Shown here one piece after another: positions 3,051 through 51,096 of a stretch of DNA of 59,874 nucleotides. The stretch lies in contig JAYTXU010000070.1 in assembly GCA_043742785.1 (NCBI GenBank), positions 1-59,874 of the forward strand, given 5' to 3'. Under the pieces are notes generated by a model. The model was given only the letters and a program-made list of their open reading frames with translations, was not told where the DNA came from and ran no database searches. Made by a program: the position numbers and the translations under genes. Each line of letters starts with the position of its first letter. Position 1 is the stretch's first letter. This stretch comes from Candidatus Omnitrophota bacterium (GTDB lineage Bacteria; Omnitrophota; Gorgyraeia; Zapsychrales; Fredricksoniimonadaceae).

Positions 3051-3962
3051 TCAATCTCCTAAAATTTTTTGTGCGCAGACAATACGATCTCTTCCTGTTA
3101 AATCTTTGATAATCTCAACAAGAGAAAATGATTCTGTTTGCTCAATCATCTGTTGAATTTCTTCAGATTGGCTTTTCTTGTCCCTGCCTGCCGGCAGGCA
3201 GGCGTCGCCAAACTCCATCATAAGATAAGCACCTTCTCTTAGCAAGCAAGGACTGTATTTTATAATATCTCGATAAAAAATTAAACCATCTTTTCCAGCT
3301 TTTAATGCCAGCGCTGGTTCCTGCAAAACATCCTTAGGAAGAGTCTTTATTTGATCTTCTGAAATATAAGGTGGATTAGAAATAATCAAATCATATTCCT
3401 GCCTTCCGGCAGACAGATCCCCTGCCTCTACGAATAAGAAATCAACCATATCTGCATGAACAAGATTTATTCTTTGCTCAAGCTTATATTTGGATACATT
3501 CTCTTTTGCTAAATCCAAAGCATCTTGTGACACATCAACACTGGTTACTTTCGAATCTGTAAGTAATATAGCTAAAGCAATCGCAATACATCCCGAACCT
3601 GTTCCTAAATCTAAAATCTTAATAATATTGTCACCCCCGAATGTTTTTATCGGGAGTCCAGATTCTGGATTCCCGTTTAAAGCATGCGGGAATGACAAAT
3701 TATTCTTTAACCTTTTAACAGCCTCATCAACCAAGACTTCTGTTTCTGGCCGTGGGATAAGTACCCTAGAATCAACCTTCAATTCAAAACCCATAAAGTT
3801 ACAGGTTCCTAAAATATACTGCAAGGGCTCTCCGTCTTGACGACGAAGTTTATAAGATTCAAATTGCTTTTGTTGTTGATCTGTTAATTGAGGTTTTTGA
3901 AGATAAAGCTCACTGCGGGAACAATTGAGAATATGGGTCAGAATTAATTCATCTTCGGTCAT
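3051..3962 (-). CDS. prmC: Release factor glutamine methyltransferase (HemK/PrmC) carrying three palindromic insertions
   Basis: VLIPRPETE, DLGTGSGCI, SNPPY; downstream of prfA. Confidence 0.95.
   Translation of the reverse strand: MTEDELILTHILNCSRSELYLQKPQLTDQQQKQFESYKLRRQDGEPLQYILGTCNFMGFELKVDSRVLIPRPETEVLVDEAVKRLKNNLSFPHALNGNPESGLPIKTFGGDNIIKILDLGTGSGCIAIALAILLTDSKVTSVDVSQDALDLAKENVSKYKLEQRINLVHADMVDFLFVEAGDLSAGRQEYDLIISNPPYISEDQIKTLPKDVLQEPALALKAGKDGLIFYRDIIKYSPCLLREGAYLMMEFGDACLPAGRDKKSQSEEIQQMIEQTESFSLVEIIKDLTGRDRIVCAQKILGD
3183..3202. repeat. 20-bp palindrome CCTGCCTGCCGGCAGGCAGG (family B), inside prmC
   Basis: Perfect palindrome; reads CLPAGR in PrmC. Confidence 0.95.
3398..3417. 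repeat. Degenerate family B palindrome inside prmC
   Basis: CCTGCCTTCCGGCAGACAGA, 17/20 match to the consensus; reads LSAGRQ. Confidence 0.8.
3628..3698. repeat. Double-hairpin element TGTCA..CCCG..CGGG..TCCA / TGGATTCCCG..GCGGGAATGACA (family C), in frame in prmC
   Basis: Homologous to 27332-27394 and 22708-22802; reads LSFPHALNGNPESGLPIKTFGGDN just before the SAM-binding motif. Confidence 0.88.
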
Positions 3963-5059
3963 TGCTGAGATTGGGCATTAATTTGAGCTTGTTCTTTAAC
4001 TTCTTTTTCTGCCGCCATCAGGGCGTTGGTTAAATCATCCATGTCACCGTTTAAAATAGCTTCAAGCTGATGAGAAGTAAAACCAATACGGTGATCCGTT
4101 ACCCGTCGATCAGAAAAATTATAAGTACGAATCTTTTCACTACGATCACCTGAACCTACTTGAGATTTACGGGCACTAGCCTGTTTTTGAGAAGAATCCT
4201 GCTGCATTTTATCCAAAATTCGCGCACGTAAAATACGCATCGCTTTAGCTCTATTTTTAATCTGAGAACGTTCATCCTGACATACAACGACGGTATTTGT
4301 GGGCAAATGAGTAATGCGCACGGCTGAGTCGGTTGTGTTAACACTTTGTCCGCCTGGACCTGAAGAACGATAAACGTCTATCTTCAAATCTTTCTGCAGA
4401 ATTGCTAATTCAATTTCTTCTGGCTCAAATAATACGGCTACAGTAACAGCAGATGTATGAATACGACCTGAAGCCTCCGTTGAAGGAACACGCTGGACAC
4501 GATGCGCGCCACTTTCCCATTTCAAACGCTTGGAACACTCTTTACCACTTAAAGAAAAAACAACTTCTTTGACTCCTCCTGCTTCAGTATCTGCATACTC
4601 CATCAATTCTAACTTCCACCCCTTTAAATCTGCATACCGGCTATACATACGATAAAGATCTCCCGCAAACAATGAAGCCTCTAAGCCGCCGGTACCTGCG
4701 CGAACTTCTATAATAATGTCTTTATCTGGTTCGTTTTTGGATGGATCTAAATAATCGGTAAGCTCTTGAGCAAGAGTTTCAATCTTTGGTTCTAAATCAG
4801 CCAACTCTATCTGAGCTAATTCTCTAAAATCAGCATCCGCCTTGCCCTTAAGTATATCCTGAAGTTCTTTAACTTGAAATACCGTCTTTTGGTAGGAACG
4901 ATAAAGATTAATCAAACCAGCTAAATTAGAAAATTCTTTGGCTAATTTCCCATATTGGCTTTGATCAGAAACAACTGTTTCGTCAGCTAAAAGTCTTTCT
5001 AACTCGACGTAACGTTCTTGAGCCTTGACCAATTTGGCTTGATCATTTGCCTTTAGCAT
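3959..5059 (-). CDS. prfA: Peptide chain release factor 1
   Basis: GGQ motif ([17 protein letters not shown]), [10 protein letters not shown]; start moved to the ATG at 5059 because the longer ORF overlaps rpmE extensively. Confidence 0.95.
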
Positions 5060-5246
5060 AACGCTTATTGAAACGTTCAATACGGCCGGCCGTATCAACG
5101 AACTTCTTTTCACCCGTAAAGAAAGGATGACACTGGGAACAAATTTCCACACGAATATTTTTCTTAGTTGCTCGTGTATGAATCACATTCCCGCAAGCAC
5201 AGCTAATAGTGGTTTCTTCATAGGCTGGATGAATTTCTGCTTTCAT
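5043..5246 (-). CDS. rpmE: 50S ribosomal protein L31 (Zn-binding type)
   Basis: [32 protein letters not shown]. Confidence 0.97.
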
Positions 5247-5316
5247 TTCTTTAACCTCCTAAAAATAACTTTAAATGAACCCCTCCTTAGGGGTTTAATA
5301 AAGGGCATATACTACA

Positions 5317-6648
5317 TTATTTGTTCATATTTTGCAAGAATTCTGCATTCGTCTTATATTTGGCTATTTTGCTAATTAAAAGCTCCATTGCTTCCGCCGC
5401 ATTAAGATCATTAAAAGCTTTGCGTAAGAGCCAAGCTCTTTGTAAGTCACCTTCAGGAACTAATAACTCCTCATGGCGAGTATTAGAACGTTTAATATCA
5501 ATAGCAGGATATATACGACGCTGGAATAGATTACGATCAAGCTGTAATTCCATATTACCCGTTCCCTTGAACTCTTCAAATATAACTTCATCCATACGAC
5601 TTCCTGTATCCACCAAGGACGTTGCAATAATAGTCAATGATCCACCCTCTTCAATATTACGGGCAGCACCAAAAAAACGTTTAGGCTTATGTAAAGCATT
5701 AGAATCCACACCACCGGAAAGAATTTTTCCTGAGTGAGGAACCACAGTATTGTAAGCGCGTGCTAAACGTGTAATAGAATCAAGCAAAATAACTACATCA
5801 CGCTTATGTTCAACTAAACGTTTAGCTTTTTCGATAACCACTTCCGCAATTTGAACGTGACGTTCAGCTGGTTCATCAAAGGTTGAAGCAATAACTTCAC
5901 CTTTAACACTTCGCTGCATATCGGTAACTTCTTCTGGACGCTCATCAATAAGAAGAACAATAAGAATAACTTCCGGATGATTAGTTACAATCGCATTAGC
6001 AATCTTTTGCATCAAAACAGTTTTACCACTATAAGGAGGAGCTACTATCAAAGCGCGCTGACCTTTACCAATAGGAGTTAATAAATTAATAATACGAGTA
6101 GAAACCTCCGATTGAGTTGTTTCCAAGTTTAAACGTTCTTTAGGATAAAGAGGTGTTAGATTATCAAAGAATATCTTATCCTTACACTTCTCTGGATTCT
6201 CAAAATTAACAGCCTCAACCTTTAAAAGCGCAAAATACTTCTCACCTTCCTTGGGAGGACGAATTTGACCGGAAACAGTATCTCCAGTCTTTAAATCAAA
6301 ACGACGTATTTGAGATGGAGAAATATAAATATCATCAGGACAAGGAAGATAATTGTATTTGGCTGAACGCAAAAAACCAAAACCTTCGGAAAGAATCTCC
6401 AAAGTTCCTTCCCCAAACATCAACCCCTCTTTTTCAGCTTGAGCCTTAAGAATCTTAAAAATTAATTCCTGTTTCTTTAAACTACTAGCCCCCTCCACAT
6501 CCATATCACGAGCTAATTTCGTTAACTCAGCCATCTTCATTTCTTTAAGATCTTCAATATTAACAGTCTTACCTGCTGGATTAGCTGGCTTATAATCACC
6601 ATTATCATTTTTATCTTCTTTTTCTTGTTTTGTTTCTGCCCTGCTCAT
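5317..6648 (-). CDS. rho: Transcription termination factor Rho
   Basis: [46 protein letters not shown]. Confidence 0.98.
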
Positions 6649-6683
6649 GCATTTCTCCTAGTTTTACTTTCAGTTAACTCGTT

Positions 6684-7286
6684 TTAATCCTGCCTGCCGG
6701 CAGGCAGGAATCTATGAACGATCGCCTTAACTTGAGCGTGTGTTTGATTCTTTGACCCGCGATTATCAATTACAATATCTGCCCTTTGTAGCTTCTCCTT
6801 AAATGACATTTGGCACTTTATACGCCGTAAAATATCTGCTTTAGAAAGCCCTGTACGCTTTTGAATCCGATTAATTTGTATGTTTTGATTTGATTGGACT
6901 ACTATGGTTACATCAGCCAGTTTATCCCAGCCAGATTCAAATAAAAGAGGAACATCCAAAACAATCAATTTCGTATTCTTTTCTCGAGTAATTTGTTTTT
7001 CTATTTCTTTTAAACCAATTGGATAAAGAATATCGGTGAGTTTCTTTAATTCACGCGGATCTTGGAAAACAATTTTAGCTAGAGCAACACGATCAATCTC
7101 ATTACTGGTTTTAAGTATAGCATGTCCAAAGACTTTTACCACTCTTTTTTCCCCTTTTCCTTTTGGGGCTAAAAGCTCATAGGTCACCTCATCTGCATCA
7201 ATAATCCTGGCTCCTTGAGCTTTAAACATACCAGCTACGGTTGTTTTACCAGAACCAAAACTTCCTGTTAATCCGATAATAAGCAT
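6684..7286 (-). CDS. coaE: Dephospho-CoA kinase
   Basis: IGLTGSFGSGKTT, IDAD, LDVPLLFE; the C-terminus LPAGRQD is repeat-derived. Confidence 0.93.
   Translation of the reverse strand: MLIIGLTGSFGSGKTTVAGMFKAQGARIIDADEVTYELLAPKGKGEKRVVKVFGHAILKTSNEIDRVALAKIVFQDPRELKKLTDILYPIGLKEIEKQITREKNTKLIVLDVPLLFESGWDKLADVTIVVQSNQNIQINRIQKRTGLSKADILRRIKCQMSFKEKLQRADIVIDNRGSKNQTHAQVKAIVHRFLPAGRQD
6689..6708. repeat. Family B 20-bp palindrome at the 3' end of coaE
   Basis: Perfect CCTGCCTGCCGGCAGGCAGG. Confidence 0.95.
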
Positions 7287-8659
7287 TTCTGATAAACCCT
7301 TATATATTCTTTAGCTGATTTCTCCCAAGAAAAACGATATCTCATGGCCTGAGATAATAGAAATCTCATTTGAGTTTTATCTTTATAAACTTTAAAAGCT
7401 TCAGCAATCGCTTTAACAAAAGCAGATTTTGTATAATTGGTAAATAAGAAACCATTCCCCGTACGGTGAATGGAATCATACAAAGAAATCGTGTCTGCTA
7501 AGCCTCCAGTTTTATATGCAATAGGAACACTACCGTAGTGCAAAGCAATCATCTGACCTAATCCACAAGGTTCGAATACCGATGGCATTAAGAAGAAATC
7601 TGAACCAGCATATATCTGATGGGCAATTCTCTCTTCAAATTTCAAATGAATACCTACATGTTTAGGATGATCTTTAGCGCATTCCTCTAACATACGGTGA
7701 TATTTCTTTTCTCCCGTTCCTGTTAAAATCAACTGCCCTCCCATCCGCACAATATCAGAGATTACTTCTGAAATTAAATCCACCCCTTTTTGATGACAAA
7801 GCCTAGCTACAAAACCAAATAATGGTCGATCAGGATCAACAATAATTTTAAAATCATCCTGCAAAATAGCTTTGTTACGTGCTTTATTATCTAAATCATG
7901 GATTGAAAATGGAACAATCAAAGATGGGTCATCCTGAGGATTCCATGCTTCATAATCTAAACCATTAAGAATACCGTAAATATCTTCTTTTCGATTCTTT
8001 AGAACCCCCTCTAAAGCACAACCTAATTCAACTGTTTGAATTTCCTGTGCATAACGAGGAGAAACAGTTGTTATAGCATCCGCAAAAATAATTCCCCCTT
8101 TAAGAATATTAATTTGATTATAAAATTCCAACCCTTGAGTATGAAACAAATCTCCATCAACACCTAAAGTTGAATATTGGTTTTTAGGAAAAACTCCTTG
8201 ATACGCCAAATTATGAATTGTTAAAACCGATTTAACGTTCTTAAAGAAAGAATCTTTCTCATATTTTGTTTTAAGTAATATAGGAATTAAAGCTGTGTGC
8301 CAATCATGACAATGAATAACATCAGGTTTAAAATGAATGTCTTTTAAGATCTTAAAGATTTGATGAGAAAAAAACGAAAAACGAGCTAAATTGTCTTGAT
8401 AATCTCCATGGATATCTCCGTAAAGGCCTCCATCGCGACCAAAATAATGCTTATGTTCAACAAAATAAACTTTGATATTCTGTCCTATACGCACCACAGG
8501 AGAAGGAACGCTCCCTCCAGAAGATCCATAACGAGGAGTAATAACAACAATCTCATGACCAGAAGACTCTAATGCTAACGGTAAAGAACCACAAACATCC
8601 GCTAACCCACCTGTTTTAGCAAAAGGAACTACTTCTGAAGCACAAAAAACTATTTTCAT
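7268..8659 (-). CDS. glgA: Glycogen synthase
   Basis: SEVVPFAKTGGLADV, HCHDWH, TIHNLAYQG, PSVFEPCGL. Confidence 0.96.
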   Translation of the reverse strand: MKIVFCASEVVPFAKTGGLADVCGSLPLALESSGHEIVVITPRYGSSGGSVPSPVVRIGQNIKVYFVEHKHYFGRDGGLYGDIHGDYQDNLARFSFFSHQIFKILKDIHFKPDVIHCHDWHTALIPILLKTKYEKDSFFKNVKSVLTIHNLAYQGVFPKNQYSTLGVDGDLFHTQGLEFYNQINILKGGIIFADAITTVSPRYAQEIQTVELGCALEGVLKNRKEDIYGILNGLDYEAWNPQDDPSLIVPFSIHDLDNKARNKAILQDDFKIIVDPDRPLFGFVARLCHQKGVDLISEVISDIVRMGGQLILTGTGEKKYHRMLEECAKDHPKHVGIHLKFEERIAHQIYAGSDFFLMPSVFEPCGLGQMIALHYGSVPIAYKTGGLADTISLYDSIHRTGNGFLFTNYTKSAFVKAIAEAFKVYKDKTQMRFLLSQAMRYRFSWEKSAKEYIRVYQKCLLSD

Positions 8660-8702
8660 AAATGAGTACCTGTCTTATGGAATTCTGCGCAGTAGAATGA
8701 CA

Positions 8703-11060
8703 TTAAACATTTTCCATTTCCAACCAATTTAAACCCATCTTTAATGAAGCCGTAAGCGGCACTGATAATTCCATTGCCGTTTCCATATAATGCTTAACCA
8801 ATTGAACCATTTCACCTCTTTCTCCAAGAGGCACATCAAAAACCAATTCGTCATGGACAGTCATAATCATCACAGAGGACAATTTCTTAACTTTCATGGC
8901 CCCAGCAATCTTAACCATAGCTAATTTAATTAAATCTGCAGCCGCCCCTTGCAAGGGAGCATTAATCGCTTGACGCTGGGCAAATTGTCTAAGACCAATG
9001 TTGGCACTTTTAATATCAGGCAAATACCTGCGACGATGAAACAACGTTTCAACAAACCCTTTTTCTTGAGCTTGAGCTATAGAATAATCCATCATTTCGC
9101 GTACCCTAGGATAACGTAAAAAATATTTATCAATAAAATCTTGAGCCTGAGCGTTTGAAATATCTAGATCCTTAGCTAAACCAAAAGCGCTCATCCCATA
9201 AATAATACCGAAATTAATACGCTTAGCTGCGTAACGCATTTGATCATCCACCTTATTTTCTGGAACATCAAACATTAAAGAAGCTGTATAACAATGAATA
9301 TCCGCATCAGCTCTAAAGGCCTTTATAAGATTCTCATCCTTAGAACAATGTGCTAATAAACGCAGTTCAATCTGTGAATAATCCGCAGATAAAAGCAAAT
9401 GATCCTTACCATAAGAAACAAAAGCTTTTCTAATCTTTCGTCCTAATTCTGTACGAATAGGAATGTTTTGCAAATTAGGATTATTTGAACTTAATCTCCC
9501 TGTTTCCGCTCCCGTTTGATTAAAACTGGCATGTAATCTTGAATGACCATCCACCATTTGAGGTAAGGCATCAATATAGGTTGATTTTAATTTAGCTAAT
9601 TGACGATACTCTAAAATCAAAGCGGGTAAAGGATGTTTTGAAGCTAGTCTATTGAGAACTTCTTCATCAGTCGAGAAACCTGTTTTTGTTTTTTTAATAA
9701 CAGGAAGGTTTAAACGCTCAAAAAGAATTTCACTTAACTGCTTAGGGGAATTAATATTAAATTCTATCCCAGCAATCTTAAACAAAGACACCTGAAGATC
9801 GCTGATTTTCTTGGCACAATCTAAAGAAAATTCTCTTAAAATTTCAACATCCAGCGCTACGCCATTTTCTTCCATCTCATAAAGAACATCAACTAAAGGA
9901 ATTTCTACATCATAAAATAAAAAATCCAACTGTTGTTCATGTAGTTCTTTTTTTAAATCTTGATATAAACGCTCAAATTCTTCTTCTGATGTAGGACGAA
10001 AAGCTTCAACTTTATTATTCCCTCCACTTAAAAGATATTGAGCCAAGAAAATATCAAAAACAGGACCTTTGATTATCTGTTGAGATTTCTTACGTAAACT
10101 CTTTAAATCATAAACAAGACTAACCATCCTCCCATCTTCTTTAATTTCTAAAAAATCAATTCTCTTTGATAAGTCTTTCTCTATCTGAATTGAAGTCTCT
10201 TCTGTTTGAGAGGATAATTCTTGAATAAATTTACGAAACTCTAACGCAGTATAAATCTCATAAAGACGGTTTTCATTAGGCGCAAGTAACTTTAGATCTT
10301 CTAATTTTGCCTCTAATGGCACCTGAGTATCAACTAAAGCTAATTCCTGACTTAATTTGGCCTGGTCCCTGCCTATCTTTAATTTTTCCTGAAGACTAAT
10401 AGGTTTAATGTCTTCTAAATGCTGATAAATCTTATCTAAAGATCCATAAGCAGTAAGTAACTTAACAGCAGAAACTTGTCCTATCCCATCGACTCCCGGA
10501 ATATTATCCGAAGAATCCCCTGCTAAACTAAGTAAATCAACAATAGATGAAGAAGGTACTCCAAATTTATCTTTAACATCCTGTTCTGTTAACATTTTCT
10601 CTTGGCGAGGGCTATAAATAAATACATGCTCCCCCATTAACTGACTCATATCTTTATCATCAGTAATAATCACAACATCCACCTTCTTATTGCTAAAACG
10701 GGTTGCTAAGGTAGCCATCACATCATCCGCCTCAAAACCTTCTTTCTCAAAAATAGGAATTTGATAGGCCCTTAGAACATCTTGTATCACAGGAATTTGC
10801 GCTCTTAAATCTTCAGGCATGGATTGACGTTGAATCTTATAATCAGCAAACTTTTCTTGTCTCAAAGTTTTCTTTCCTACATCAAAACAAGCCGCCATAT
10901 AAACTGGCTGAAAATCACGTAACATCTTTCTTAAGATATTACAAAAACCTAAAACAGCATTTGTGGGCTGTCCTTTAGAATTGGTTAGGGCTTTAACTGC
11001 GTAAAAAGCACGGTAACATAAACCGTGAGCATCAATTAAAAATACTTTTGGATTTGACAT
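8703..11060 (-). CDS. polA: DNA polymerase I with a reduced central 3'-5' exonuclease region
   Basis: 5' nuclease motifs (EADD, GDSSDNIPGV) and PolA motifs (TGRLSS, ADYSQIELR, INFGIIYG, VHDELVF). Confidence 0.95.
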   Translation of the reverse strand: MSNPKVFLIDAHGLCYRAFYAVKALTNSKGQPTNAVLGFCNILRKMLRDFQPVYMAACFDVGKKTLRQEKFADYKIQRQSMPEDLRAQIPVIQDVLRAYQIPIFEKEGFEADDVMATLATRFSNKKVDVVIITDDKDMSQLMGEHVFIYSPRQEKMLTEQDVKDKFGVPSSSIVDLLSLAGDSSDNIPGVDGIGQVSAVKLLTAYGSLDKIYQHLEDIKPISLQEKLKIGRDQAKLSQELALVDTQVPLEAKLEDLKLLAPNENRLYEIYTALEFRKFIQELSSQTEETSIQIEKDLSKRIDFLEIKEDGRMVSLVYDLKSLRKKSQQIIKGPVFDIFLAQYLLSGGNNKVEAFRPTSEEEFERLYQDLKKELHEQQLDFLFYDVEIPLVDVLYEMEENGVALDVEILREFSLDCAKKISDLQVSLFKIAGIEFNINSPKQLSEILFERLNLPVIKKTKTGFSTDEEVLNRLASKHPLPALILEYRQLAKLKSTYIDALPQMVDGHSRLHASFNQTGAETGRLSSNNPNLQNIPIRTELGRKIRKAFVSYGKDHLLLSADYSQIELRLLAHCSKDENLIKAFRADADIHCYTASLMFDVPENKVDDQMRYAAKRINFGIIYGMSAFGLAKDLDISNAQAQDFIDKYFLRYPRVREMMDYSIAQAQEKGFVETLFHRRRYLPDIKSANIGLRQFAQRQAINAPLQGAAADLIKLAMVKIAGAMKVKKLSSVMIMTVHDELVFDVPLGERGEMVQLVKHYMETAMELSVPLTASLKMGLNWLEMENV

Positions 11061-11073
11061 GAAAGATTAGAAT

Positions 11074-11574
11074 TTACCGAACAACTTGACCGATAGTCTG
11101 ATTAATTAATAAATGACGATTAACATCTTCATTAACCTGAATACTCTGCAATGCTTCTTTTGCTTGAATTGTCCATGAATCTTTAGATTGCCCTAACTTC
11201 ACTCGTTTCTGAAAATAATACTTTGCTTTTTGAATATCACCTTGATTCCGATATAAAGAACCTAAATTAAAATATACAGGTAGAAAATCTCTATCTAACT
11301 TCAAAACACTTAAATATTTTTGTTCAGCTTTTTCAGGAAACCCCAACTCTTCATAAATAACTCCCAAAGAATTGATGGCTTCTACTTTGTTTGGTTTTAA
11401 CGCCAGGGCTTGTTCATAATAATGCATAGCATCCGACAATTGACCTGCTTCTCTTGCTTCATAGCCTTTTTCTATGTATTGCCCAACTTCAGGACTTTCC
11501 TGCCACATCCAGGCAATATTAATCAAACACAATAAAGATAAAAAGAACATTTGAATTCTTCCCATCTCTTTCAA
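11074..11574 (-). CDS. Tetratricopeptide repeat protein with N-terminal hydrophobic segment
   Basis: TPR-like repeats (AMHYYEQALALKP, NSLGVIY, YFNLGSLY). Confidence 0.8.
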   Translation of the reverse strand: MKEMGRIQMFFLSLLCLINIAWMWQESPEVGQYIEKGYEAREAGQLSDAMHYYEQALALKPNKVEAINSLGVIYEELGFPEKAEQKYLSVLKLDRDFLPVYFNLGSLYRNQGDIQKAKYYFQKRVKLGQSKDSWTIQAKEALQSIQVNEDVNRHLLINQTIGQVVR

Positions 11575-12611
11575 CCTCCTATTAAAGCTTCTTCTTGATC
11601 AGTCACGGAAGTCGCTTCAGCAATGATTTTAGATATTTTTTTCTCATAAGTAGATGCATTAAACAACACAGCCCCTACTAACAAATCTCCTTGAGCATAA
11701 ATTTTCTTAAACACATTTTGAGGCGCATCAAACTTTAAATATTCCCGACCACCTTGAGGAAGCTTAGTTAACCCCATACAAAATCCTTCCAATACTTTAA
11801 AACCAAAATGATAAGGCTTAAGCGGCAAACTCCTTAAAAAATATTCTTCTTCGATTTTCTGATAATCACTCTCTTGATCAATTAATCTCCAATCTAAAGG
11901 TAAAGAATCAGCAATAACCATTTGTGCTGCCAGAACCTTACCACTTTGTAGTTTAACCGCCTTTACTTCAGAGTCTCCTAAAATCTCTTCAATCGTATTA
12001 TCTGTAATCACTCGGATATCACTGTTCTCTATAATTTGCTTTAGCAAAGCACTGGTTTCATCATCCAGAAAATTAGATAGAAGACTATCTTCCGAAACTA
12101 CGATAACCACTTCCTTACCAAGCCCATGCAAGGCACAAGCTATATTAAAACCTTGCATATGAGTAACCATCACAAAAATAGTATCTGCAAATGGCAGATA
12201 CTTAACAATTTTCTTAACAGAGGATAAAAGCGTACAATCAAAAACACCTTGCCTTTGATGCCCTTTAACTGAAAGAGGCATCACACAACCTAAATCAGCA
12301 ATCACCAACTGATCATAATCAATCTTTATCTTAGTTTCAGTTGTTAAATATTTACGTTTAGAGCTAATACGTGCAAGTTTTTCATTAGCAACAACCCCTA
12401 CTCTCTGCTCTTTAAAGAAGTTCTCTGACAAAATATGTGTCGCAGCTTCTTTAATTTGACCAGCAAGAAAGGACGGTAAAGTAAAACGATCATACGGCAA
12501 CATACCTTCTGAACAAAATAAAGAAATATCAGAGTCTTTATCCTTTTGACGAATATCTTCAATAGCTTTAATCGTAGCCAGTGAATTTCCCACAACAAGA
12601 ATTTTACTCAT
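11571..12611 (-). CDS. FAD/NAD(P) oxidoreductase-like protein (NirB N-terminal/rubredoxin reductase fold) with degenerate motifs
   Basis: Family layout retained (PYDR..L, IDYDQLVI, LDDE.S.LL, FKKIY..GDLLVGAVL) but glycine-rich motifs altered. Confidence 0.65.
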   Translation of the reverse strand: MSKILVVGNSLATIKAIEDIRQKDKDSDISLFCSEGMLPYDRFTLPSFLAGQIKEAATHILSENFFKEQRVGVVANEKLARISSKRKYLTTETKIKIDYDQLVIADLGCVMPLSVKGHQRQGVFDCTLLSSVKKIVKYLPFADTIFVMVTHMQGFNIACALHGLGKEVVIVVSEDSLLSNFLDDETSALLKQIIENSDIRVITDNTIEEILGDSEVKAVKLQSGKVLAAQMVIADSLPLDWRLIDQESDYQKIEEEYFLRSLPLKPYHFGFKVLEGFCMGLTKLPQGGREYLKFDAPQNVFKKIYAQGDLLVGAVLFNASTYEKKISKIIAEATSVTDQEEALIGG

Positions 12612-13456
12612 AAACTTTGTTTAAATACCTCCACTACATTTTTCATTAACATCACCGAAGTTACAGGACCTACACCCCCAGGTACAGGTGTAATAAACGA
12701 AGCCTTTTCTTTGCATGATTCAAAATCAACATCTCCAACAATTTTACCATCCACTTGGTTAATCCCCACATCAATGACAATGGCCCCTGGCTTAATCCAA
12801 TCCCCTTTAACAAATAAAGGTTTACCAATTGCTGCCACGACAACATCCGAACTTCGAACGACTCCAGGTAAATCATTGGTTTTAGAATGACAAATGGTTA
12901 CAGTCATATTTTCGGCAAGTAATAATAAAGCCATCGGCTTACCTACGATTTCACTACGTCCAAGAACGACAGCCGTTTTCCCTTTTAAAGGGATACCCGA
13001 TGATTTTAATAATTCCACTGCTGCTGCAGGAGTACAAGGAACACTGCAAATTTGACCTATAAACAGCCGACCTAAATTAAGAACGTTCATTCCTTCAATA
13101 TCTTTTTCTTCAGGAATCACATCAAAACATTTTGCAGAGTTAATGCTGGAAGGAAGCGGCTTATTAAGAATAATTCCATTAACATTTTCTAAATGACCTA
13201 ATTCAAGAATTACCTTTAAAAGATCTGATTCAGACGTCTGTAGCGACAGTTGCCTTAATTCATATTGAATCCCTAAACTCTCTGCTGTTCTTTTCTGAGA
13301 AGCGAGATAAGAAAGACTGCTTGGATCATTCCCGACGACAATACTAACAATACTAGGAACCTTGCCAGACCTAGCTTTTAAATCGGTAATTTCCTTTATT
13401 AATTGTTCTTTGAGCTTAGCAGCTAGTAATTTCCCATCTAGAATCTGCGCACTCAT
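12608..13456 (-). CDS. folD: Bifunctional methylenetetrahydrofolate dehydrogenase/cyclohydrolase
   Basis: ILDGK, PCTP, GRSEIVGKP, IDVGIN, ITPVPGGVGP. Confidence 0.96.
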   Translation of the reverse strand: MSAQILDGKLLAAKLKEQLIKEITDLKARSGKVPSIVSIVVGNDPSSLSYLASQKRTAESLGIQYELRQLSLQTSESDLLKVILELGHLENVNGIILNKPLPSSINSAKCFDVIPEEKDIEGMNVLNLGRLFIGQICSVPCTPAAAVELLKSSGIPLKGKTAVVLGRSEIVGKPMALLLLAENMTVTICHSKTNDLPGVVRSSDVVVAAIGKPLFVKGDWIKPGAIVIDVGINQVDGKIVGDVDFESCKEKASFITPVPGGVGPVTSVMLMKNVVEVFKQSL

Positions 13457-13944
13457 GAATTAATCCTCACCATGACCAGGGCTCCATTAAAACCAGCTGT
13501 CAAAAGTTCAATTGAAACTTCCACATCCGACAATAAATAGGGGTTCCCTTTAACTACTAAGAAAGGAATTAAATCAATCGTCTTGTAACACAATTTGCAA
13601 ATTTCCAGTGGCACTGCACGAGCAGTCTTAGAGGCATTCTTCTGCGCTTTCTTATCTAAGACCCTAGCCGCACAAACCTGCAGATAAGCTTCTGAATCAA
13701 GACTTGCCAAATCTAAAAGTCTTTTACGAATAATTTCACTTTTCTTGAGTATTTCTCTCAATTTCTTATCAACAGCAAAAGTGTTAGATTTTCGTCCAAT
13801 AGAGTAATTAGCCACCATAGACACCAATCCCGCTCCTAAGGCAGCTGTTAATCCTGCTGCCGAACCACCGCCAGGAACAGGTTCCTTGGTAGAAAGCTGA
13901 TTTAAATAGCTTTCCAGAGTTTTATTTGAAAATTGAATTTTCAT
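13453..13944 (-). CDS. Cyclodeaminase/cyclohydrolase family protein (FTCD_C/FchA-like)
   Basis: PVPGGGSAA, LVSMVAN, GNPYLLSDV, VRIN; adjacent to folD. Confidence 0.85.
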   Translation of the reverse strand: MKIQFSNKTLESYLNQLSTKEPVPGGGSAAGLTAALGAGLVSMVANYSIGRKSNTFAVDKKLREILKKSEIIRKRLLDLASLDSEAYLQVCAARVLDKKAQKNASKTARAVPLEICKLCYKTIDLIPFLVVKGNPYLLSDVEVSIELLTAGFNGALVMVRINS

Positions 13945-14033
13945 GAGGATGTTATTTGAGCTAATTAATGATATATATTATTTTTATATTAACGGAAAGA
14001 AATTTTGACTTCAATACAATATGAATAATTCTA

Positions 14034-14963
14034 TTAATGACTTAGATACTTCTCTGCATCCAAAGCTGCCATACAACCGGTACCTGCTGAAGTAACCGCT
14101 TGACGATAAATCTTATCTTGTACATCCCCTGCTGCAAAAACACCAGAAACACTAGTCTGGGTAGTCCCTGAATTAGTTTTTATGTAGCCTGATTCATCTA
14201 ACTCTAGCTGACCATTTAAAAAAGCCGTGTTAGGCACATGGCCAATGGCGTAAAACAAACCGCCTATATCTAAAATACTTTCTACATTAGAAACTGTATT
14301 TTTTATTTTTAGTCCCGTAACAGCTTTCTCTCCTAACACTTCAATAGGCAAGGTGTTATACAATAATTCAATCTTAAGATTATTCCTAGCACGATCCTGC
14401 ATGACCTTAGAAGCTCGCAACACATCACGGCGCACCAACATCAGAACCTTGGAAGCAAACTTAGTTAAATAAGAAGCCTCTTCCACAGCGGAATCCCCTC
14501 CTCCTACAACAACTAAAACCTTATTTCGAAAGAACGGCAAAGCCCCATCGCAAACAGCACAAGCTGAGATCCCCTTTTGCCACAAACGATCCTCTCCTGG
14601 AAGATTCATCCGTTTAGCTGTTGCACCTGTGGCAAGAATCAGACTCTTTGTTTCATAGGTTTTAGTACCAACAAATACTTTAAAAGGACTTCTTGATAAA
14701 TCAACCTTATCAACAGTCTCTGTAACAATACGTGTTCCGCAATGTTCCGATTGTTGGCGCATTTTCTCCATTAATTCTGGTCCAGAAATACTTGTAAACC
14801 CTGGAAAATTTTCAACCTCAGTTGTAGTTGTCAATTGTCCACCAGCAACAACTCCCGCCGCGAATAATCCCTCAAACATCAAAGGTTTTAAATTAGCCCT
14901 TGCAGCATAGGTAGCCGCTGTATGACCTGCAGGACCAGAACCGATAATAATAATGTTTTCCAT
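14034..14963 (-). CDS. trxB: Thioredoxin-disulfide reductase
   Basis: IIGSGPAG, GGQLTTTTEVENFPG, CAVCDG, GGGDSAVEEA, FAAGDV. Confidence 0.97.
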   Translation of the reverse strand: MENIIIIGSGPAGHTAATYAARANLKPLMFEGLFAAGVVAGGQLTTTTEVENFPGFTSISGPELMEKMRQQSEHCGTRIVTETVDKVDLSRSPFKVFVGTKTYETKSLILATGATAKRMNLPGEDRLWQKGISACAVCDGALPFFRNKVLVVVGGGDSAVEEASYLTKFASKVLMLVRRDVLRASKVMQDRARNNLKIELLYNTLPIEVLGEKAVTGLKIKNTVSNVESILDIGGLFYAIGHVPNTAFLNGQLELDESGYIKTNSGTTQTSVSGVFAAGDVQDKIYRQAVTSAGTGCMAALDAEKYLSH

Positions 14964-14972
14964 ACCTTCTCC

Positions 14973-15001
14973 AAAAAATAAAAGCGGGGAATCAGCCCCG
15001 C
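14973..15001 (-). terminator. Putative intrinsic terminator after korB
   Basis: Minus strand GCGGGG-ctgatt-CCCCGC followed by TTTTATTTTTT. Confidence 0.6.
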
Positions 15002-15047
15002 CCTCACCCCTAGCATATACAGGCTGAGCCTTTTCAGCTTTTACCCA

Positions 15048-17773: not shown

Positions 17774-18002
17774 AACTTACCCTTCTTTATATAATATCAA
17801 TGGATTGGAAATATTTATGAAGTAGTTTTCAATATAACACTGCCGAAGAGTTTAGCAATAGAAATCTAAAAACTCTTTTCGTCTAACTTCAAGGGGATAT
17901 ACAAATGTACATTTGCATACCTTTGTTAAGAAACAATTAACACAGTTTGATATAAATTGATTTTTATCAAGACGTTTCAAAGTGTTAAGTATTTAACATT
18001 TT

Positions 18003-18500: not shown

Positions 18501-18513
18501 TAGTTTCTCCTCT

Positions 18514-19074: not shown

Positions 19075-19117
19075 AGCTCCCCTCATAGGTTAAAATTGGT
19101 TAAAAATATTTAGAAAC

Positions 19118-19675: not shown

Positions 19676-19718
19676 GGATCCCCTCATAGGTTAAAATTGG
19701 TTAAAAATATTTAGAAAC

Positions 19719-20267: not shown

Positions 20268-20310
20268 TCAGTCCTCCATAGGTTTAAATTGGTTTAAAAA
20301 ATCTAAGAAC

Positions 20311-36100: not shown

Positions 36101-36170
36101 ATAAATAGTGACAGGCACTAATTATTTCTACTCGTTATCGTTGGATTAATTAGTGCCTGTCACTATTTAT
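36101..36170. repeat. Family A REP doublet at the 3' end of the RAYT gene
   Basis: Perfect 24-bp inverted repeat ATAAATAGTGACAGGCACTAATTA at 36101-36124 and 36147-36170. Confidence 0.95.
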
Positions 36171-48530: not shown

Positions 48531-48547
48531 AAGATTCCATATAATAA

Positions 48548-49013: not shown

Positions 49014-49088
49014 TTATCAAGCCCCCTTCTTTTCTTTGATCCTCTGCTAGCGAATAAATCATTACTGATTACTGTGCATCTCCTAGAA

Positions 49089-50093
49089 TCACCAATGAAA
49101 AGATTTCTGATAATCTTTTTTAGAAATTATATCGACAGCCACTAAAACATCTTCCACCTGCAAGCCTGTTGGAGAATAAAGACAAACACCTTTTTCTGAT
49201 AATGGCTTCCAACGTTCAGGATTAATGCCTGGCTCATTACGCATAAACAAAGAAATCACATCAATATCCACCGCAGTTCCAATATGAACAGGACCTGAAT
49301 CATTCGAGATCAAGAGACGACACCTTCTTAAAAGGCTTACCGTCTGAGCCAAACTTGTCTGCCCAGTTAGATCCAAAGGTTTTTGATTGGTTAAACGGAT
49401 AATTTCCATTGAACGATCTAAAGTTTGTTTGGACCCAATTAAGACAATCTTGAGAGAATACTTCCGCCCTAAGGCATCGATAAGTTTGGCAAAGCTTTCT
49501 TTTGACCAGCATTTTTCCTCGTCGCTGGAACCGGCATGAATAGCAATTATATCCCCACTATTAATTCCCTGAGAAGAAAGCCATTGGCCTGCCCAATTCT
49601 CTGCTTCTTTATCCACAGGAAGAAGAAAATCTAAATGAGGAGCTTCAATCCCTACCTTCTTTAAAAGGTCTAAACAATACTGAGCCTCATGTTGTTCCCC
49701 TTGTGAGCGCATATCCCTAACTGGATGGGTCAATAAGAACCCAAACTTGTCATTCTTATAAGCTATACGTACAGGAACCCCTGCCAAAAAACATGCTAAA
49801 TTATATCGTCGTTTCGTATGAAAAATAAAAACAGCATCAAACCTTCTTTGCCGAATATCCCGAGCCAGTTTCAAAAATCCCAATAACCCTTGATGACGAC
49901 CGCTACGATCATCCAAGAGAACTTCATCTAAATAAGGATTACCAACGACCAGATCTTTAGTTGAAGGAGTGACCATCATTGAAAGTCGAGCATTGAGATA
50001 AGCTGTTCGTAACGCTTTAACGACGGGGGTTGTCAGAACCACATCCCCAATCCGATCAGTCCTTACAATCAATATATTATTTAATTTGAGCAT
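49089..50093 (-). CDS. Glycosyltransferase family 9 (heptosyltransferase-like)
   Basis: RTDRIGDVVL, ISNDSGPVH; start set at MLKLN. Confidence 0.9.
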   Translation of the reverse strand: MLKLNNILIVRTDRIGDVVLTTPVVKALRTAYLNARLSMMVTPSTKDLVVGNPYLDEVLLDDRSGRHQGLLGFLKLARDIRQRRFDAVFIFHTKRRYNLACFLAGVPVRIAYKNDKFGFLLTHPVRDMRSQGEQHEAQYCLDLLKKVGIEAPHLDFLLPVDKEAENWAGQWLSSQGINSGDIIAIHAGSSDEEKCWSKESFAKLIDALGRKYSLKIVLIGSKQTLDRSMEIIRLTNQKPLDLTGQTSLAQTVSLLRRCRLLISNDSGPVHIGTAVDIDVISLFMRNEPGINPERWKPLSEKGVCLYSPTGLQVEDVLVAVDIISKKDYQKSFHW

Positions 50094-51096
50094 ACACTTC
50101 TCCAAATGCATCCAACACATCACGCTGTGTGATCGATGACATACAATGATGAGACAAATTCAAAGCTTTTGGATTTAAGCAACGAGGACAATGATAATTA
50201 CGATGTACCACTCTAGAAATTGAACTCCAAGGAGAAGAACACCTAGGATCAGTAGGACCAAAAAGAGCTACCACCGGCTTATTAAGATAACTAGCGATAT
50301 GCATAGGACCGCTGTCATGAACAACTGCGATCAGAGATCGTTTGATCAAAGCGGCTGCTTGAATTAAATTGGTGCGACCTGCTAAATTAAGGATAGGAAC
50401 ATCTGCTTGTTTAACAATGTCTTCAATTGCTTGTTTTTGTTGAGTATTCCCAATCATAACAACCTTACGACCATATTGATTAAAGATCGCCTTGCTCAAA
50501 TGCGCAAATTCCATAGAATCCCAAGTCTTACTTGAATCTGCAGCAAATGGCGCAATAAAAACAAAAGCCTGCCTGCCGGCAGGGAGAGAAGAATCCTGCA
50601 TTAAAAAAGGTTTTAGTAATTGATCAATATATTCTTGATCCTTAACTGACGGTGCTATTGTTGAAGGAACAGCTAAAGAAGATCCAAAATCATAAAGCAT
50701 CCGTAATCGATTTAAATGTCGGTCTTTTAAATGAATCTGTTTATTAATAAATAATTGTGGTGACGTAACCCAATGCGGTGTTAGAGAATAACCAATCATC
50801 GAATTTCTAAGATCCACTACCAAATCATAGCGAAATTCTCTTAAAGCTAAAGTCCACTGAGCTTGTTTAAAGAAATTACGTTCTTTATCAAAAATATGAA
50901 TTTGGCTAATACGGGTATTTCCTTCAAATAAAGAAGCTGCTCTTTCTCCAATCACTAAGGATAATCTCGCCGATGAAAAATCTCTTAGAAGAATATCAAT
51001 CACAGGGGCAGATAAAAGCACATCACCAATATTACTTAAAGTGATAACCAGGATATTCTTAACTGATGAATTTTTGGACAGCTTCCAGAACATCAT
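50077..51096 (-). CDS. Glycosyltransferase family 9
   Basis: LSNIGDVLL, HDSGPMH, LFGPT; contains an LPAGRQ insert; exact start uncertain. Confidence 0.9.
   Translation of the reverse strand: MMFWKLSKNSSVKNILVITLSNIGDVLLSAPVIDILLRDFSSARLSLVIGERAASLFEGNTRISQIHIFDKERNFFKQAQWTLALREFRYDLVVDLRNSMIGYSLTPHWVTSPQLFINKQIHLKDRHLNRLRMLYDFGSSLAVPSTIAPSVKDQEYIDQLLKPFLMQDSSLPAGRQAFVFIAPFAADSSKTWDSMEFAHLSKAIFNQYGRKVVMIGNTQQKQAIEDIVKQADVPILNLAGRTNLIQAAALIKRSLIAVVHDSGPMHIASYLNKPVVALFGPTDPRCSSPWSSISRVVHRNYHCPRCLNPKALNLSHHCMSSITQRDVLDAFGEVYAQIK
50568..50587. repeat. Family B palindrome in frame in a GT9 gene
   Basis: CCTGCCTGCCGGCAGGGAGA (18/20); reads LPAGRQ. Confidence 0.85.

Follow-up and report, generated by a model that had tools for sequence, protein, structure and literature searches.

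How a palindrome of only 20 bp comes to lie within protein-coding genes, and what moves it, is the question raised by a 59,874-nucleotide contig of a Candidatus Omnitrophota bacterium (the window, here meaning the whole stretch of DNA that was analyzed). The sequence, CCTGCCTGCCGGCAGGCAGG, is a perfect palindrome and is referred to below as X. A preliminary description of the window had proposed either a minimal mobile element or a protein-binding site, with no mobiliser in view.

Palindrome X in the window and the genome

Most of what had been described for the window was borne out. A pattern search allowing up to three mismatches returned the eight copies that had been claimed (Table 1), of which three are exact (3183, 6689, 22771), two carry one mismatch (23079, 33010), two carry two (23059, 50568), and one carries three (3398). 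No match was present in 100 dinucleotide shuffles of the window. Six copies lie within ORFs, the genome is AT-rich (37.4% G+C), X is free of stop codons in all frames, and two frames are in use, the ORFs of the window reading LPAGRQ five times and CLPAGR once. The copy placed at 23062 is real, but its coordinate is not: it is a 16-mer, CCTGCCGGCAGGCAGG, at 23063–23078, scored as 23059 with two mismatches. In-frame X was confirmed within four annotated genes; beyond the window, copies read in the third frame (PACRQA) occur as well.

Table 1. Copies of X and associated features in the window
Feature	Position	Strand	Context
Exact X	3183–3202		Inside prmC (ORF 3051–3962, minus strand); peptide ACLPAGR
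Degenerate X, three mismatches	3398–3417		Inside prmC; peptide DLSAGRQE
Hairpin of another family, ATTCCCGT ttaaagcat GCGGGAAT	3669–3693		In prmC, within 27-residue insertion (aa 88–114)
Exact X	6689–6708		Last codons of coaE (ORF 6684–7286, minus strand); FLPAGRQD, then stop
Outer hairpin repeat, ATTCCCGC ... GCGGGAAT	22758–22798		Loop holds exact X (22771–22790), touching the 3′ arm
Tandem X pair	23059–23098		Intergenic; 16-mer variant (23063–23078), then X with one mismatch (23079–23098)
X, one mismatch (common TAC/GGT variant)	33010–33029		Molybdopterin-subunit gene (32417–34774, minus strand); GLPAGRQV
RAYT-like Y1 (IS200-like) gene	36150–36827	minus	Pfam Y1_Tnp, 55.9 bits; rival candidate mobiliser, outside the element
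X, two mismatches	50568–50587		Family-9 glycosyltransferase gene (50077–51096, minus strand); SLPAGRQA

The 1.9-Mb genome (G000) contains 34 copies with up to two mismatches, 19 of them exact, against none for a reversed-pattern control, so that X is enriched over both composition-matched nulls (window shuffles and reversed patterns). Copies are rarer in ORFs than expected (15–19 of 34, with ORFs covering 81–93% of the genome; one crude ORF definition underlies both figures). Sequences of the form (CCTG)n CCGG (CAGG)m occur in G000 19 times as (2,2), five times as (1,2), and twice as (2,1), and forms longer than (2,2) are absent from that genome. As RNA, X is calculated to form a stable hairpin (−13.9 kcal/mol, RNA parameters). 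The flanks of 181 sites show a single bias, A at position −1 in 43%, and no tetranucleotide.

Insertion sites

Empty orthologous sites were found in relatives for prmC, the molybdopterin subunit, and the glycosyltransferase. The prmC site at 3183 is filled in G000 and G007, the latter with a 27-nt variant that breaks the frame, and is empty in the alignment in five relatives of the same genus and 11 more distant ones, over whose alleles the net gain is 24 nt. The copy at 3398 lies in a length-variable PrmC loop that is 5–7 residues longer in G000 than in close relatives, and is probably old. PrmC residues 88–114, which contain the hairpin of another family, are missing from most relatives in the alignment. 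At the molybdopterin-subunit site (Pfam: xanthine-dehydrogenase family), G000 is 21 nt longer than all 13 relatives and all 36 further records, two sets that may overlap, and has an extra base about 5 nt upstream of X. The glycosyltransferase gene is likewise 21 nt longer than in the four closest relatives, and its insert is absent in all 13 relatives aligned. In coaE, the Pfam domain spans residues 2–178 of 200. The ORF that hosts the hairpin and X at 22771–22790 (22553–23023) gave no match in a Pfam search; positions 22712–22731 hold another hairpin of that family.

Judged from the sequences, copies of X in ORFs amount to net gains of 21 or 24 nt that leave the frames open, the frame being restored by an extra 1 or 4 nt at most about 10 nt from X. 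Because X has no stop codon, only in-frame copies survive in genes. A target duplication had been thought necessary for such copies; this was not supported, the insert being exactly 20 bp, with neither duplication nor deletion, wherever an uninterrupted copy of the target exists. The hairpin GGATTCCCGC/TTTC GCGGGAATGAC is present in about 17 copies without X and three with X, all at the same junction. Fragments of tRNA-Leu, tRNA-Asn, and tRNA-Lys, compared with the intact tRNA at their own locus, and short direct repeats in other phyla (L038, L039, L098) also show a 20-bp insert and no duplication. X has thus entered new sites many times, precisely and with no target-site duplication; these sites include loops of other hairpin repeats, tRNA gene copies, intergenic sequence, and the variable parts of ordinary genes. 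Together, enrichment and empty orthologous sites support the reading as a minimal mobile element. A MITE mobilized by a DDE enzyme would have terminal inverted repeats and a target-site duplication, and X does not fit this type, no duplication being present at the hairpin, tRNA, and direct-repeat sites. Neither cleavage nor excision was seen, nor any polymorphic site: contigs from four runs contained no indel at X sites.

X is enclosed by an outer stem of 6 bp or more at 31 of 181 non-redundant exact sites (200 shuffles: mean 9.1, maximum 18), and at 20 sites X lies at distance 0–1 from an arm (shuffles: mean 2.8, maximum 7); the majority, 150 of 181, are without an outer hairpin. Exact abutment of X and arm (16 of 31) modestly exceeds the roughly 10 that uniform placement within the loop would give by an arithmetic estimate. 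X is nested within X at L250 and L274, and also within other hairpins.

X is carried by 26 of 41 relatives and, as the exact 20-mer, by 81 of 251 genomes of the phylum, at 0–51 copies per genome that vary widely within genera (controls: 0). Beyond the phylum the exact 20-mer was found at more than 123 loci, including cultured Bacteroidota, and at 40 loci on viral contigs. Across the 79 loci of at least 2 kb examined, no gene family turned up repeatedly within 2 kb of X.

A GIY-YIG nuclease cassette linked to X

X consistently accompanies one clade of very small GIY-YIG (UPF0213-type) genes, which lie in tRNA genes as mobile cassettes. That X is tied to a nuclease gene is the new result of this study. 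The encoded proteins (79–100 aa) share the C-terminal motif Y[LF]K-SG-G[RK]E. Each cassette comprises a duplicated tRNA 5′ fragment broken by X, 11–21 nt, the nuclease ORF, and the intact tRNA; X is present on both sides only in G025 and G078, and otherwise on the upstream side. In G000 (contig C77), G001, and G025, X splits a tRNA-Leu(GAG) fragment directly upstream of orthologous ORFs (80% and 63% identity), located between pyrG and rpe and followed by the intact tRNA-Leu. The same site is empty in G003 and G005, which shows the cassette itself to be mobile. No further orthologs of the G000 gene were found in 41 relatives beyond G001 and G025. A search based on X recovered the same architecture in a WWE3 genome (L269), at L340, L353, L293, and L120, and on a viral contig (L229).

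The 79-aa cassette ORF matches the GIY-YIG domain PF01541 over residues 1–71 (66.1 bits; cut-off 22.6), and no separate DNA-binding domain was found in it. Among solved structures, it comes closest to the UPF0213 proteins 1zg2 and 1ywl; its similarity to SLX1 falls short of significance (E 0.1–0.7).

A motif scan independent of X identified true clade genes in seven of 251 genomes. Six of the seven, all of them X-rich, have X or its 16-mer variant in the upstream tRNA fragment (tRNAs Leu, Asn twice, Lys, and Thr); upstream of the G239 member lie other GC-rich repeats and no X. All seven genomes are X-positive, and six belong to the group of 17 with seven or more exact copies (Fisher test, p = 2.5e-7 with G000 and 3.2e-6 without it, kin not being independent). 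Part of this association is inherent, as every cassette brings one or two X copies of its own. GIY-YIG genes of other clades occur beside similar tRNA fragments in these genomes and have no X. Of the 17 genomes in the group with seven or more copies, 11 lack the clade motif. X-rich genomes without the gene are G166 (51 copies), G186 (22), G052 (17), G063 (13), and G103 (11), three of which are 97–99% complete, and no GIY-YIG gene adjoins X in the loci fetched from these five. Over the 41 relatives, the number of GIY-YIG family genes does not follow the number of X copies, and only about 5% of cross-phylum X loci are near a GIY-YIG gene. The earlier statement that no mobiliser is visible in the window holds for the favored candidate, which is on contig C77; a RAYT-like Y1 gene is present in the window, without any link to X.

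Proposed mechanism and alternatives

The explanation favored here, to which we assign a probability of about 0.5, is that X is selfish palindromic DNA, a REP-like solo module spread via a tRNA-homing GIY-YIG nuclease. Because five X-rich genomes lack the gene, we do no more than infer that solo copies spread through it. The nuclease would cut at the borders of single- and double-stranded DNA at extruded hairpins, as might be expected, by analogy, of a relative of structure-specific nucleases. X would enter at such cuts, first at the nuclease's own cleavage site 9–18 nt upstream of the cassette junction. It may do so by ligation of a 20-nt hairpin folded on itself, or it may be an aborted copy of the palindromic leader of the cassette. 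Solo X would then be to the nuclease as REP is to RAYT. The cassette, which a viral contig also carries, would ferry X across lineages and phyla, and X-rich genomes without the gene would have lost it or encountered it only in trans.

A doubtful but possible alternative is that another agent moves X, be it a host function found universally (replication, repair, or topoisomerase activity) or another enzyme, and that the tRNA fragment by the cassette is only the target it hits most often, for instance through nicking by the nuclease, with no role for the nuclease in the spread of solo copies. The X-rich genomes without a clade gene, the identity of X across phyla with no recurrent neighbor, and the failure of GIY-YIG counts to track X are consistent with such an agent; the fixed offset of X from the start codon in six of seven independently found clade genes, at five tRNAs, argues against it, as do the lack of X at the similar tRNA fragments next to GIY-YIG genes of other clades within those genomes and the restriction of the clade to X-positive genomes. 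It is improbable that X is an ordinary REP, moved on single-stranded DNA by a RAYT/IS200-like Y1 transposase such as that at 36150–36827. Its size and palindromic form would fit, as would the missing target duplication, which Y1/HUH enzymes typically do not leave, and G000 has 2–3 Y1 genes, including the RAYT-like gene of the window (72.6 bits against the NCBIfam REP-associated tyrosine transposase model, below its cut-off of 80). However, these genes are flanked by neither X nor other GC-rich hairpins: X is absent near the three Y1 genes of G000, and no GC-rich hairpin lies within 600 nt of the RAYT-like gene. Nor do X and Y1 co-occur across the 41 relatives, G031 and G002 having 13 and eight copies of X and no Y1, and G027 and G013 six and four Y1 genes and no X. 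X also lacks the tetranucleotide tag, GTAG or CGTC, conserved at one end of the REPs described in PMC3733652, and is found in ORFs and identical across phyla, whereas REPs are characterized in PMC3116915 and PMC3733652 as extragenic and lineage- or species-specific.

Two further readings dispense with insertion from elsewhere. Selection for a host motif (a protein-binding site, a terminator or RNA-stabilizing hairpin, or an uptake signal) is very improbable, despite a stable RNA hairpin and the conservation of all 20 bases, which extends to the tRNA-Leu cassette site in three lineages whose nucleases are only 63–80% identical. X is patchily present among close relatives, at non-orthologous sites with empty alleles; these two points make the protein-binding site of the preliminary description unlikely as a host function. 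Its low copy number, its occurrence within ORFs and other repeats, and its presence in unrelated phyla and on viral contigs point the same way. Least probable of all is local birth by slippage or template-switch palindromization of CCTG/CAGG-like seeds. The CCTG periodicity, the 16-mer variants, and the resemblance of the empty prmC and molybdopterin-subunit sites to the right half of X (GACGGTCAGG, GACGGCAAGG) would suit this origin, but the identical 20-mer also stands beside intact, seedless empty copies in hairpin loops and tRNA fragments, and only the (2,2) form is common, with no longer arrays.

Comparison with known systems

Rickettsia palindromic elements (RPEs), reportedly described by Ogata et al. 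in 2000, are repeats of 100–150 bp. Like X, whose 21- or 24-nt net gains keep the frames open and would be translated, they are palindromic repeats lying in frame within protein-coding genes and translated. They differ in being 100–150 bp and confined to Rickettsia, X being 20 bp and pan-bacterial, and we know of no nuclease linked to them. The small dispersed repeats (SDRs) of cyanobacteria are reported to nest in one another and to our knowledge have no associated enzyme. As reported through PMC2884548 and PMC3116915, SDRs resemble X in being dispersed, about 20 bp or more, and proposed to be mobile (Elhai et al. 2008, Genome Res 18:1484), and differ in their restriction to cyanobacteria.

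In the sources on REPs, REPINs, and RAYTs cited above, the likeness to X is that of a short GC-rich palindrome in many copies (for X, 34 in 1.9 Mb), with no target duplication expected and a physical tie to a dedicated small nuclease gene. At 20 bp, X falls within the 20–40 bp of REPs. The partner of X is a GIY-YIG nuclease in a tRNA-gene cassette and that of REPs a Y1 enzyme; X is, in addition, without the GTAG/CGTC tag at 181 sites and has 15–19 of its 34 copies in ORFs.

A hairpin of N. gonorrhoeae, which we take to be one of the Neisseria dRS3-type repeats/NIMEs, is also relevant. This sequence family differs from X, and we know of no dRS3-type repeats written into proteins at the scale of X and of no reported GIY-YIG link. 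The outer hairpin hosting X in G000 (GTCATTCCCGCGAAAGCGGGAATC) is found letter for letter in an N. gonorrhoeae sequence (PMC7593972), and short hairpin repeats that cross phyla are therefore not unique to X. Hairpin repeats of the dRS3 kind are known targets of insertion elements, according to references in PMC3116915.

GC42, a GC cluster of yeast mitochondria, is described in PMC4478555 as 42 nt long with a putative AG target duplication; helper endonucleases of other mobile elements are proposed there for GC clusters, by a mechanism given as unsolved. As far as that account goes, such clusters resemble X as GC-rich palindromes multiplying in an AT-rich genome, with sporadic distribution, merging and nesting, and horizontal exchange. 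By the same account, GC42 differs in its length, its AG duplication, and its organellar setting, X being bacterial and viral and without duplication.

I-TevI, another free-standing GIY-YIG homing endonuclease, cleaves some 23–25 nt from its insertion site, an offset that may, by analogy, be likened to the 9–18 nt between X and the cassette junction. I-TevI has a separate DNA-binding domain; unlike SegB and I-TevI, the X-linked ORFs (about 79–100 aa) comprise nothing beyond the catalytic domain and lack a DNA-binding domain, and their cassettes restore the tRNA via a duplicated 5′ part. We know of no dispersed palindrome alongside either enzyme. T4 SegB is presented in PMC2330249 as a free-standing GIY-YIG homing endonuclease of a tRNA gene cluster, and, on that description, its gene, like those of the X-linked nucleases, is located within or next to tRNA genes and is mobile as a cassette.

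Copies and Composition of the Palindrome

With up to three mismatches, the 20-bp perfect palindrome CCTGCCTGCCGGCAGGCAGG occurs eight times in the window and not once in 100 dinucleotide-preserving shuffles. Six copies lie within ORFs (annotated with Pfam), and the counts of the preliminary description are thereby confirmed. The surrounding genome (G000; 1.9 Mb, 85 contigs, 37.4% G+C, 82% complete) holds 34 copies with up to two mismatches, 19 of them exact, compared with none for a reversed-pattern control; the palindrome is thus enriched over a composition-matched null, as that description presupposed. The form (CCTG)2CCGG(CAGG)2 is found 19 times in G000, forms one unit shorter seven times, and longer forms never. 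The palindrome is therefore a defined unit and not a microsatellite, and local origin by slippage is rejected, given that only the full (2,2) form is common. One variant, G8A (equivalent to C13T), is recurrent: in G000 it accounts for four of the 11 copies with one mismatch, and in a relative, G001, it is found in 14 of 31 copies (TGCC to TACC, equivalent to GGCA to GGTA). Either a subfamily is active, or the position is a mutational hotspot such as a methylated C of GCCGGC.

By a crude count, the copies in G000 are read as LPAGRQ 14 times, CLPAGR five times, and PACRQA twice; the corresponding figures outside G000 are 16, 10, and 12. The LPAGRQ and CLPAGR frames are both used, as the preliminary description states, but use is not limited to these two. 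ORFs are depleted in the palindrome, with 15–19 of the 34 copies in G000 in ORFs versus an ORF cover of 81–93%, which points to selection against copies in ORFs. Of 161 sites across phyla, 111 lack an open frame spanning ±150 nt. Giant open frames were also encountered in G000 and in two relatives (G035, G008).

Features discussed in the text and their coordinates
Feature	Location	Description
PrmC gene	window 3051–3962	two copies of the palindrome, one exact and one degenerate
CoaE gene		palindrome provides the last codons
ORF without Pfam match		one copy
Molybdopterin-binding subunit, xanthine-dehydrogenase family		one copy
Family-9 glycosyltransferase gene		one copy
Hairpin repeat GTCATTCCCGCGAAAGCGGGAATC	window 22712–22731 and 27371–27390	also genome-wide in G000
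RAYT-like Y1 gene	window 36150–36827	NCBIfam 72.6 bits, cut-off 80
Paralogue of the RAYT-like Y1 gene	G000 C48 23277–23606	
tRNA-Leu cassette	G000 C77	order: pyrG; first 31 nt of tRNA-Leu(GAG); palindrome; 9 more tRNA nt; GIY-YIG ORF; intact tRNA-Leu(GAG); rpe
GIY-YIG ORF of this cassette, 79 aa	G000 C77 55343–55582	begins 17 nt past the palindrome
Small GIY-YIG gene, other clade	G000 C7 14574–14886	precedes tRNA-Asn; duplicated 5′ fragment broken by two GC-rich hairpin-like inserts
Small GIY-YIG gene, other clade	G000 C9 15790–16005	after tRNA-Met and tRNA-Val
Small GIY-YIG gene, other clade	G000 C48 87229–87516	at a tRNA gene
Small GIY-YIG gene, other clade (L488)	G004 C10	at a tRNA gene
Clade gene locus L413	G239 C6 65463–66483	three tandem ~60-nt units rich in GGCGGGACCGCC-type palindromes in place of the palindrome; tRNA-Tyr after the ORF
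prmC of G007 (L006)	G007 C28	27-nt variant, seven extra central bases, same site as in G000
Cassette locus L381	G078 C65	palindrome on both sides; second copy, with one mismatch, after the restored tRNA-Lys
Cassette locus L356	G025 C42	palindrome on both sides; unit tandemly repeated, part masked as N
Giant open frame	G000 C2 around 56077	18,893 codons; contains the palindrome nested in a hairpin
Giant open frame	G035 C1	44,145 codons
Giant open frame	G008 C10	11,270 codons

Evidence for Insertion

Empty orthologous sites, anticipated in the preliminary description, were found for three genes. At the palindrome, the molybdopterin subunit gene of G000 is 21 nt longer than in 13 of 13 relatives and in 36 of 36 further records, which may overlap with the 13. 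The glycosyltransferase gene is 21 nt longer than in the four closest relatives, and the insert is absent from all 13 relatives aligned. The prmC site is filled in G000 (net gain 24 nt) and in its nearest relative, G007, and empty in the other 16 relatives aligned. In G007 the variant at this site breaks the frame of the gene beyond it; the gene may be a pseudogene, the palindrome may have been misassembled, or a hot site may have received a second event. The prmC gene of G000 carries three palindrome-derived insertions in all: a hairpin of another family (residues 88–114, missing in most relatives), the degenerate copy, and the exact copy.

Wherever an uninterrupted version of the same sequence lies nearby for comparison, the insert measures exactly 20 bp, and nothing has been duplicated or deleted. 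Approximately 17 copies of the hairpin repeat GGATTCCCGC TTTC GCGGGAATGAC are empty and three contain the palindrome between 5′ arm and loop, while in a second hairpin family it sits at either end of the loop. The same exact insert is seen in tRNA fragments, on comparison with the intact tRNA of the same locus, and in short direct repeats of other phyla. The expectation that in-frame copies need a target duplication is not borne out; instead, frame is kept in ORFs by an extra 1 or 4 nt within approximately 10 nt of the palindrome. The palindrome is very probably mobile, selfish DNA.

An assembly artefact is excluded by the existence of mutated copies, by the prmC site in two species, and by the presence of the palindrome in isolates, a complete long-read chromosome, and contigs of separate runs. 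Removal at the RNA level was considered in the form of a tRNA intron. Deleting the palindrome at 123 loci gave no complete tRNA across the site, one doubtful call aside; the interrupted pieces are duplicated fragments and not split genes, which argues against an intron, as does the in-frame constraint on ORF copies against any removal from RNA. Contigs of four DNA runs (one study; two may be the source sample; no RNA run was listed) covering 3100–23099 of the window show no indel at palindrome sites, a result uninformative on mobility since contigs lose rare variants. At 22443–23099, contig depth reached 284 and 227 in two of the runs (X3 and X4) versus approximately 3 in adjoining bins; the hairpin repeats there are common to other, more abundant organisms of these samples.

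Target Preference

Among 181 non-redundant exact sites, the base preceding the palindrome (symmetrized) is A in 43% and T in 9%. Most of these sites have no outer hairpin, and 31 lie inside an outer inverted repeat of at least 6 bp (expected 9.1, maximum 18 in 200 shuffles). The palindrome abuts an arm in 20 sites (expected 2.8, maximum 7 in 200 shuffles). By simple arithmetic, uniform placement in the 31 loops would itself give approximately 10 exact abutments, modestly fewer than the 16 observed. The preference for hairpin loops is therefore firm, and that for the stem–loop junction weak.

Distribution Across Bacteria and Viruses

Exact or near-exact copies occur in 26 of 41 relatives from the same order and in 81 of 251 genomes sampled from the phylum, at 0 to 51 copies and with wide differences within genera; a control pattern is absent from all 251. 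In records representing one genome per species the palindrome is present at more than 123 loci, where a chance 20-mer is expected less than once in the whole collection (estimated as 596 Gb/4^20), and a further 40 loci are on viral contigs. Among the 80 titles listed, 23 belong to Patescibacteria-type groups and 22 to Bacteroidota, including the cultured Winogradskyella, Flagellimonas, Longitalea, and Flavivirga. The remainder comprise Omnitrophota, Planctomycetes-labelled and Gammaproteobacteria-labelled records, Bdellovibrionales, Thermodesulfovibrionales, Chloroflexi, and others; in some cases, a record labelled "uncultured Planctomycetales" is probably an Omnitrophota one.

All-against-all blastp of 1173 flanking ORFs from 123 cross-phylum loci (79 of at least 2 kb) yielded no family in more than three loci, ATYCCSGN-type hairpins lie within 2 kb in only six of the 79, and a search for related loci via PrmC found nothing.

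The GTCATTCCCGCGAAAGCGGGAATC-type repeat of Neisseria gonorrhoeae is presumably of the dRS3 type. The window's own GTCATTCCCGCGAAAGCGGGAATC is identical to a repeat printed in an N. gonorrhoeae sequence (PMC7593972). Its occurrence in both Omnitrophota and Neisseria makes it a second short hairpin family found in more than one phylum.

A GIY-YIG Cassette at tRNA Genes

What resemble tRNA 5′ halves at several cross-phylum sites are duplicated fragments, each with a small GIY-YIG ORF downstream. Orthologs of the cassette on contig C77 of G000, both with the palindrome at the same tRNA position, are present in G001 and in a member of another family, G025, where the cassette is in tandem; their proteins are 80% and 63% identical to that of G000, respectively, and no further ortholog was found among the 41 relatives. 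The pyrG–tRNA-Leu–rpe site is plain in G003 and G005 and has other content in G004 and G007, all of the same genus. The cassette is thus an insertion in its own right. Searches with the palindrome revealed the same architecture at other tRNAs in a WWE3 genome (L269) and at three further loci (L340, with tRNA-Gly, L353, and L293), and palindrome, tRNA fragment, and GIY-YIG ORF are also combined on a viral contig (L229). At L120 the palindrome sits in the tRNA copy downstream of the ORF, and two genomes have it on both sides of the cassette. Its position is fixed, 9–18 nt upstream of the end of tRNA homology. The GIY-YIG proteins of all these loci share the C-terminal motif Y[LF]K-SG-G[RK]E, while three other small GIY-YIG genes of G000 have neither motif nor palindrome. 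The nuclease consists of the catalytic domain only; its closest solved relatives are UPF0213 proteins, and a match to SLX1 is not significant.

As a test independent of the palindrome, a degenerate DNA pattern of this motif was run on the same 251 genomes. Nine matched, seven with true GIY-YIG genes and two with unrelated genes. In six of the seven, the palindrome lies inside a tRNA 5′ fragment, 11–21 nt ahead of the start codon, and the ORF is followed by the intact tRNA (Leu-GAG, Asn-GTT twice, Lys-CTT, Thr-CGT); G243 has two tandem copies, and in G195 a 16-mer variant replaces the tRNA D-loop. In the seventh genome, G239, other GC-rich repeats are found upstream and the palindrome is not. 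All seven genomes are palindrome-positive, and six are among the 17 with at least seven exact copies (Fisher p = 2.5e-7; 3.2e-6 without G000). Two caveats apply: related genomes are not independent data points, and every cassette brings one or two copies of its own. The broader motif EKYLKSG, shared with other clades, is weakly associated with the palindrome (22 of 46 motif-positive versus 59 of 205 motif-negative genomes; p = 0.011).

Small GIY-YIG genes of other clades were also observed at tRNA genes in G000 and G004. In G004 another clade occupies the 3′ end of tRNA-Leu(GAG), which is duplicated. The hairpin-like inserts in the tRNA fragments of the C7 and C48 genes are unique sequences and form no dispersed families. 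Homing to tRNA genes with a hairpin leader seems general to small GIY-YIG cassettes, and other clades may each pair with a palindrome of their own, the ATTCCCGC...GCGGGAAT family being one candidate.

Proposed Mechanism and Alternatives

Exact 20-bp insertion without target duplication, preference for hairpin loops, and constant pairing with one GIY-YIG clade at a fixed place are the observations to be explained. We assign a probability of about 0.5 to the reading, taken as a whole, that the small GIY-YIG clade spreads the palindrome. On this view, the nuclease would cleave where single- and double-stranded DNA meet in extruded hairpins, its homing site in the tRNA gene among them. The palindrome would be taken up at the cuts, either as a 20-nt hairpin folded on itself or as an abortive copy of the palindromic leader of the cassette. 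Filler bases added now and then would account for the gains of 21 or 24 nt retained in genes. The cassette, and phages with it, would carry the palindrome between lineages, and genomes with the palindrome but without the gene would have lost the latter or encountered it in trans. A cleavage site offset from the insertion site is typical of GIY-YIG homing enzymes such as I-TevI.

Several results argue against a simple model in which the nuclease moves the palindrome. Five palindrome-rich genomes (51, 22, 17, 13, and 11 copies; three 97–99% complete) have no clade gene, nor a GIY-YIG gene adjoining the palindrome in the loci fetched; the motif is missing in 11 of the 17 richest genomes; family-level GIY-YIG counts bear no clear relation to palindrome counts in the 41 relatives, only the clade-level comparison being informative; no gene family in general recurs beside the palindrome; and neither excision, cleavage, nor polymorphism was observed in the run contigs, which drop rare variants. 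It is conceivable, if rather unlikely, that other machinery, possibly a universal host one, moves the palindrome and that the cassette's tRNA fragment is merely a favorite target. That the palindrome is an ordinary REP moved by a RAYT is not supported; this hypothesis was tested and set aside. No recognizable REP flanks the Y1 gene of the window. Selection of the palindrome by the host as a useful motif is highly improbable.

Significance and Comparison with Known Systems

Three features are notable: an identical 20-mer is present in Omnitrophota, Patescibacteria, cultured Bacteroidota, other phyla, and viral contigs; its insertion is base-pair precise and leaves no target duplication; and its physical association is with a single clade of tiny GIY-YIG genes acting as tRNA-gene homing cassettes. 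The chance that this is a new two-part mobile system is substantial. In its complete form the proposal is tentative: in parallel to REP/RAYT, a catalytic-domain-only Slx1/UPF0213-like nuclease would home into tRNA genes and, in trans, cut hairpin junctions and paste in a self-folding 20-nt hairpin; phages would spread the hairpin through six or more bacterial phyla, and ordinary enzymes would acquire LPAGRQ from it. If so, the hairpin would be the smallest transposable unit known, and part of the widespread UPF0213 family would gain its first function. Were the link causal, the old problem of how palindromic mini-repeats move could be tested with a 79-residue protein and a 20-nt oligonucleotide, and likewise the role of UPF0213/YhbQ-type proteins. 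The palindrome accounts for recurrent LPAGRQ, CLPAGR, and PACRQA peptides and for spurious small ORFs in metagenome annotations. It is also one route by which proteins gain short loops, and a marker of recent horizontal contact among very different bacteria.

Small palindromic repeats have been known for decades, yet REPs, with RAYT, are to our knowledge the only ones whose mobilizing enzyme has been found. Searches of open-access papers and bioRxiv by string and by word gave no description of the palindrome or of a palindrome–GIY-YIG pairing; the strings of the palindrome, its core, and its three peptides had no match there, and the outer hairpin alone matched one paper. Yeast mitochondrial GC clusters are likewise GC-rich palindromes in an AT-rich genome (PMC4478555). 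In-frame colonization of genes is common to the palindrome and the Rickettsia palindromic elements. In its workings the palindrome comes closest to a REP and its RAYT, but three of four tests of REP membership give a negative result, and its partner enzyme comes from another superfamily.
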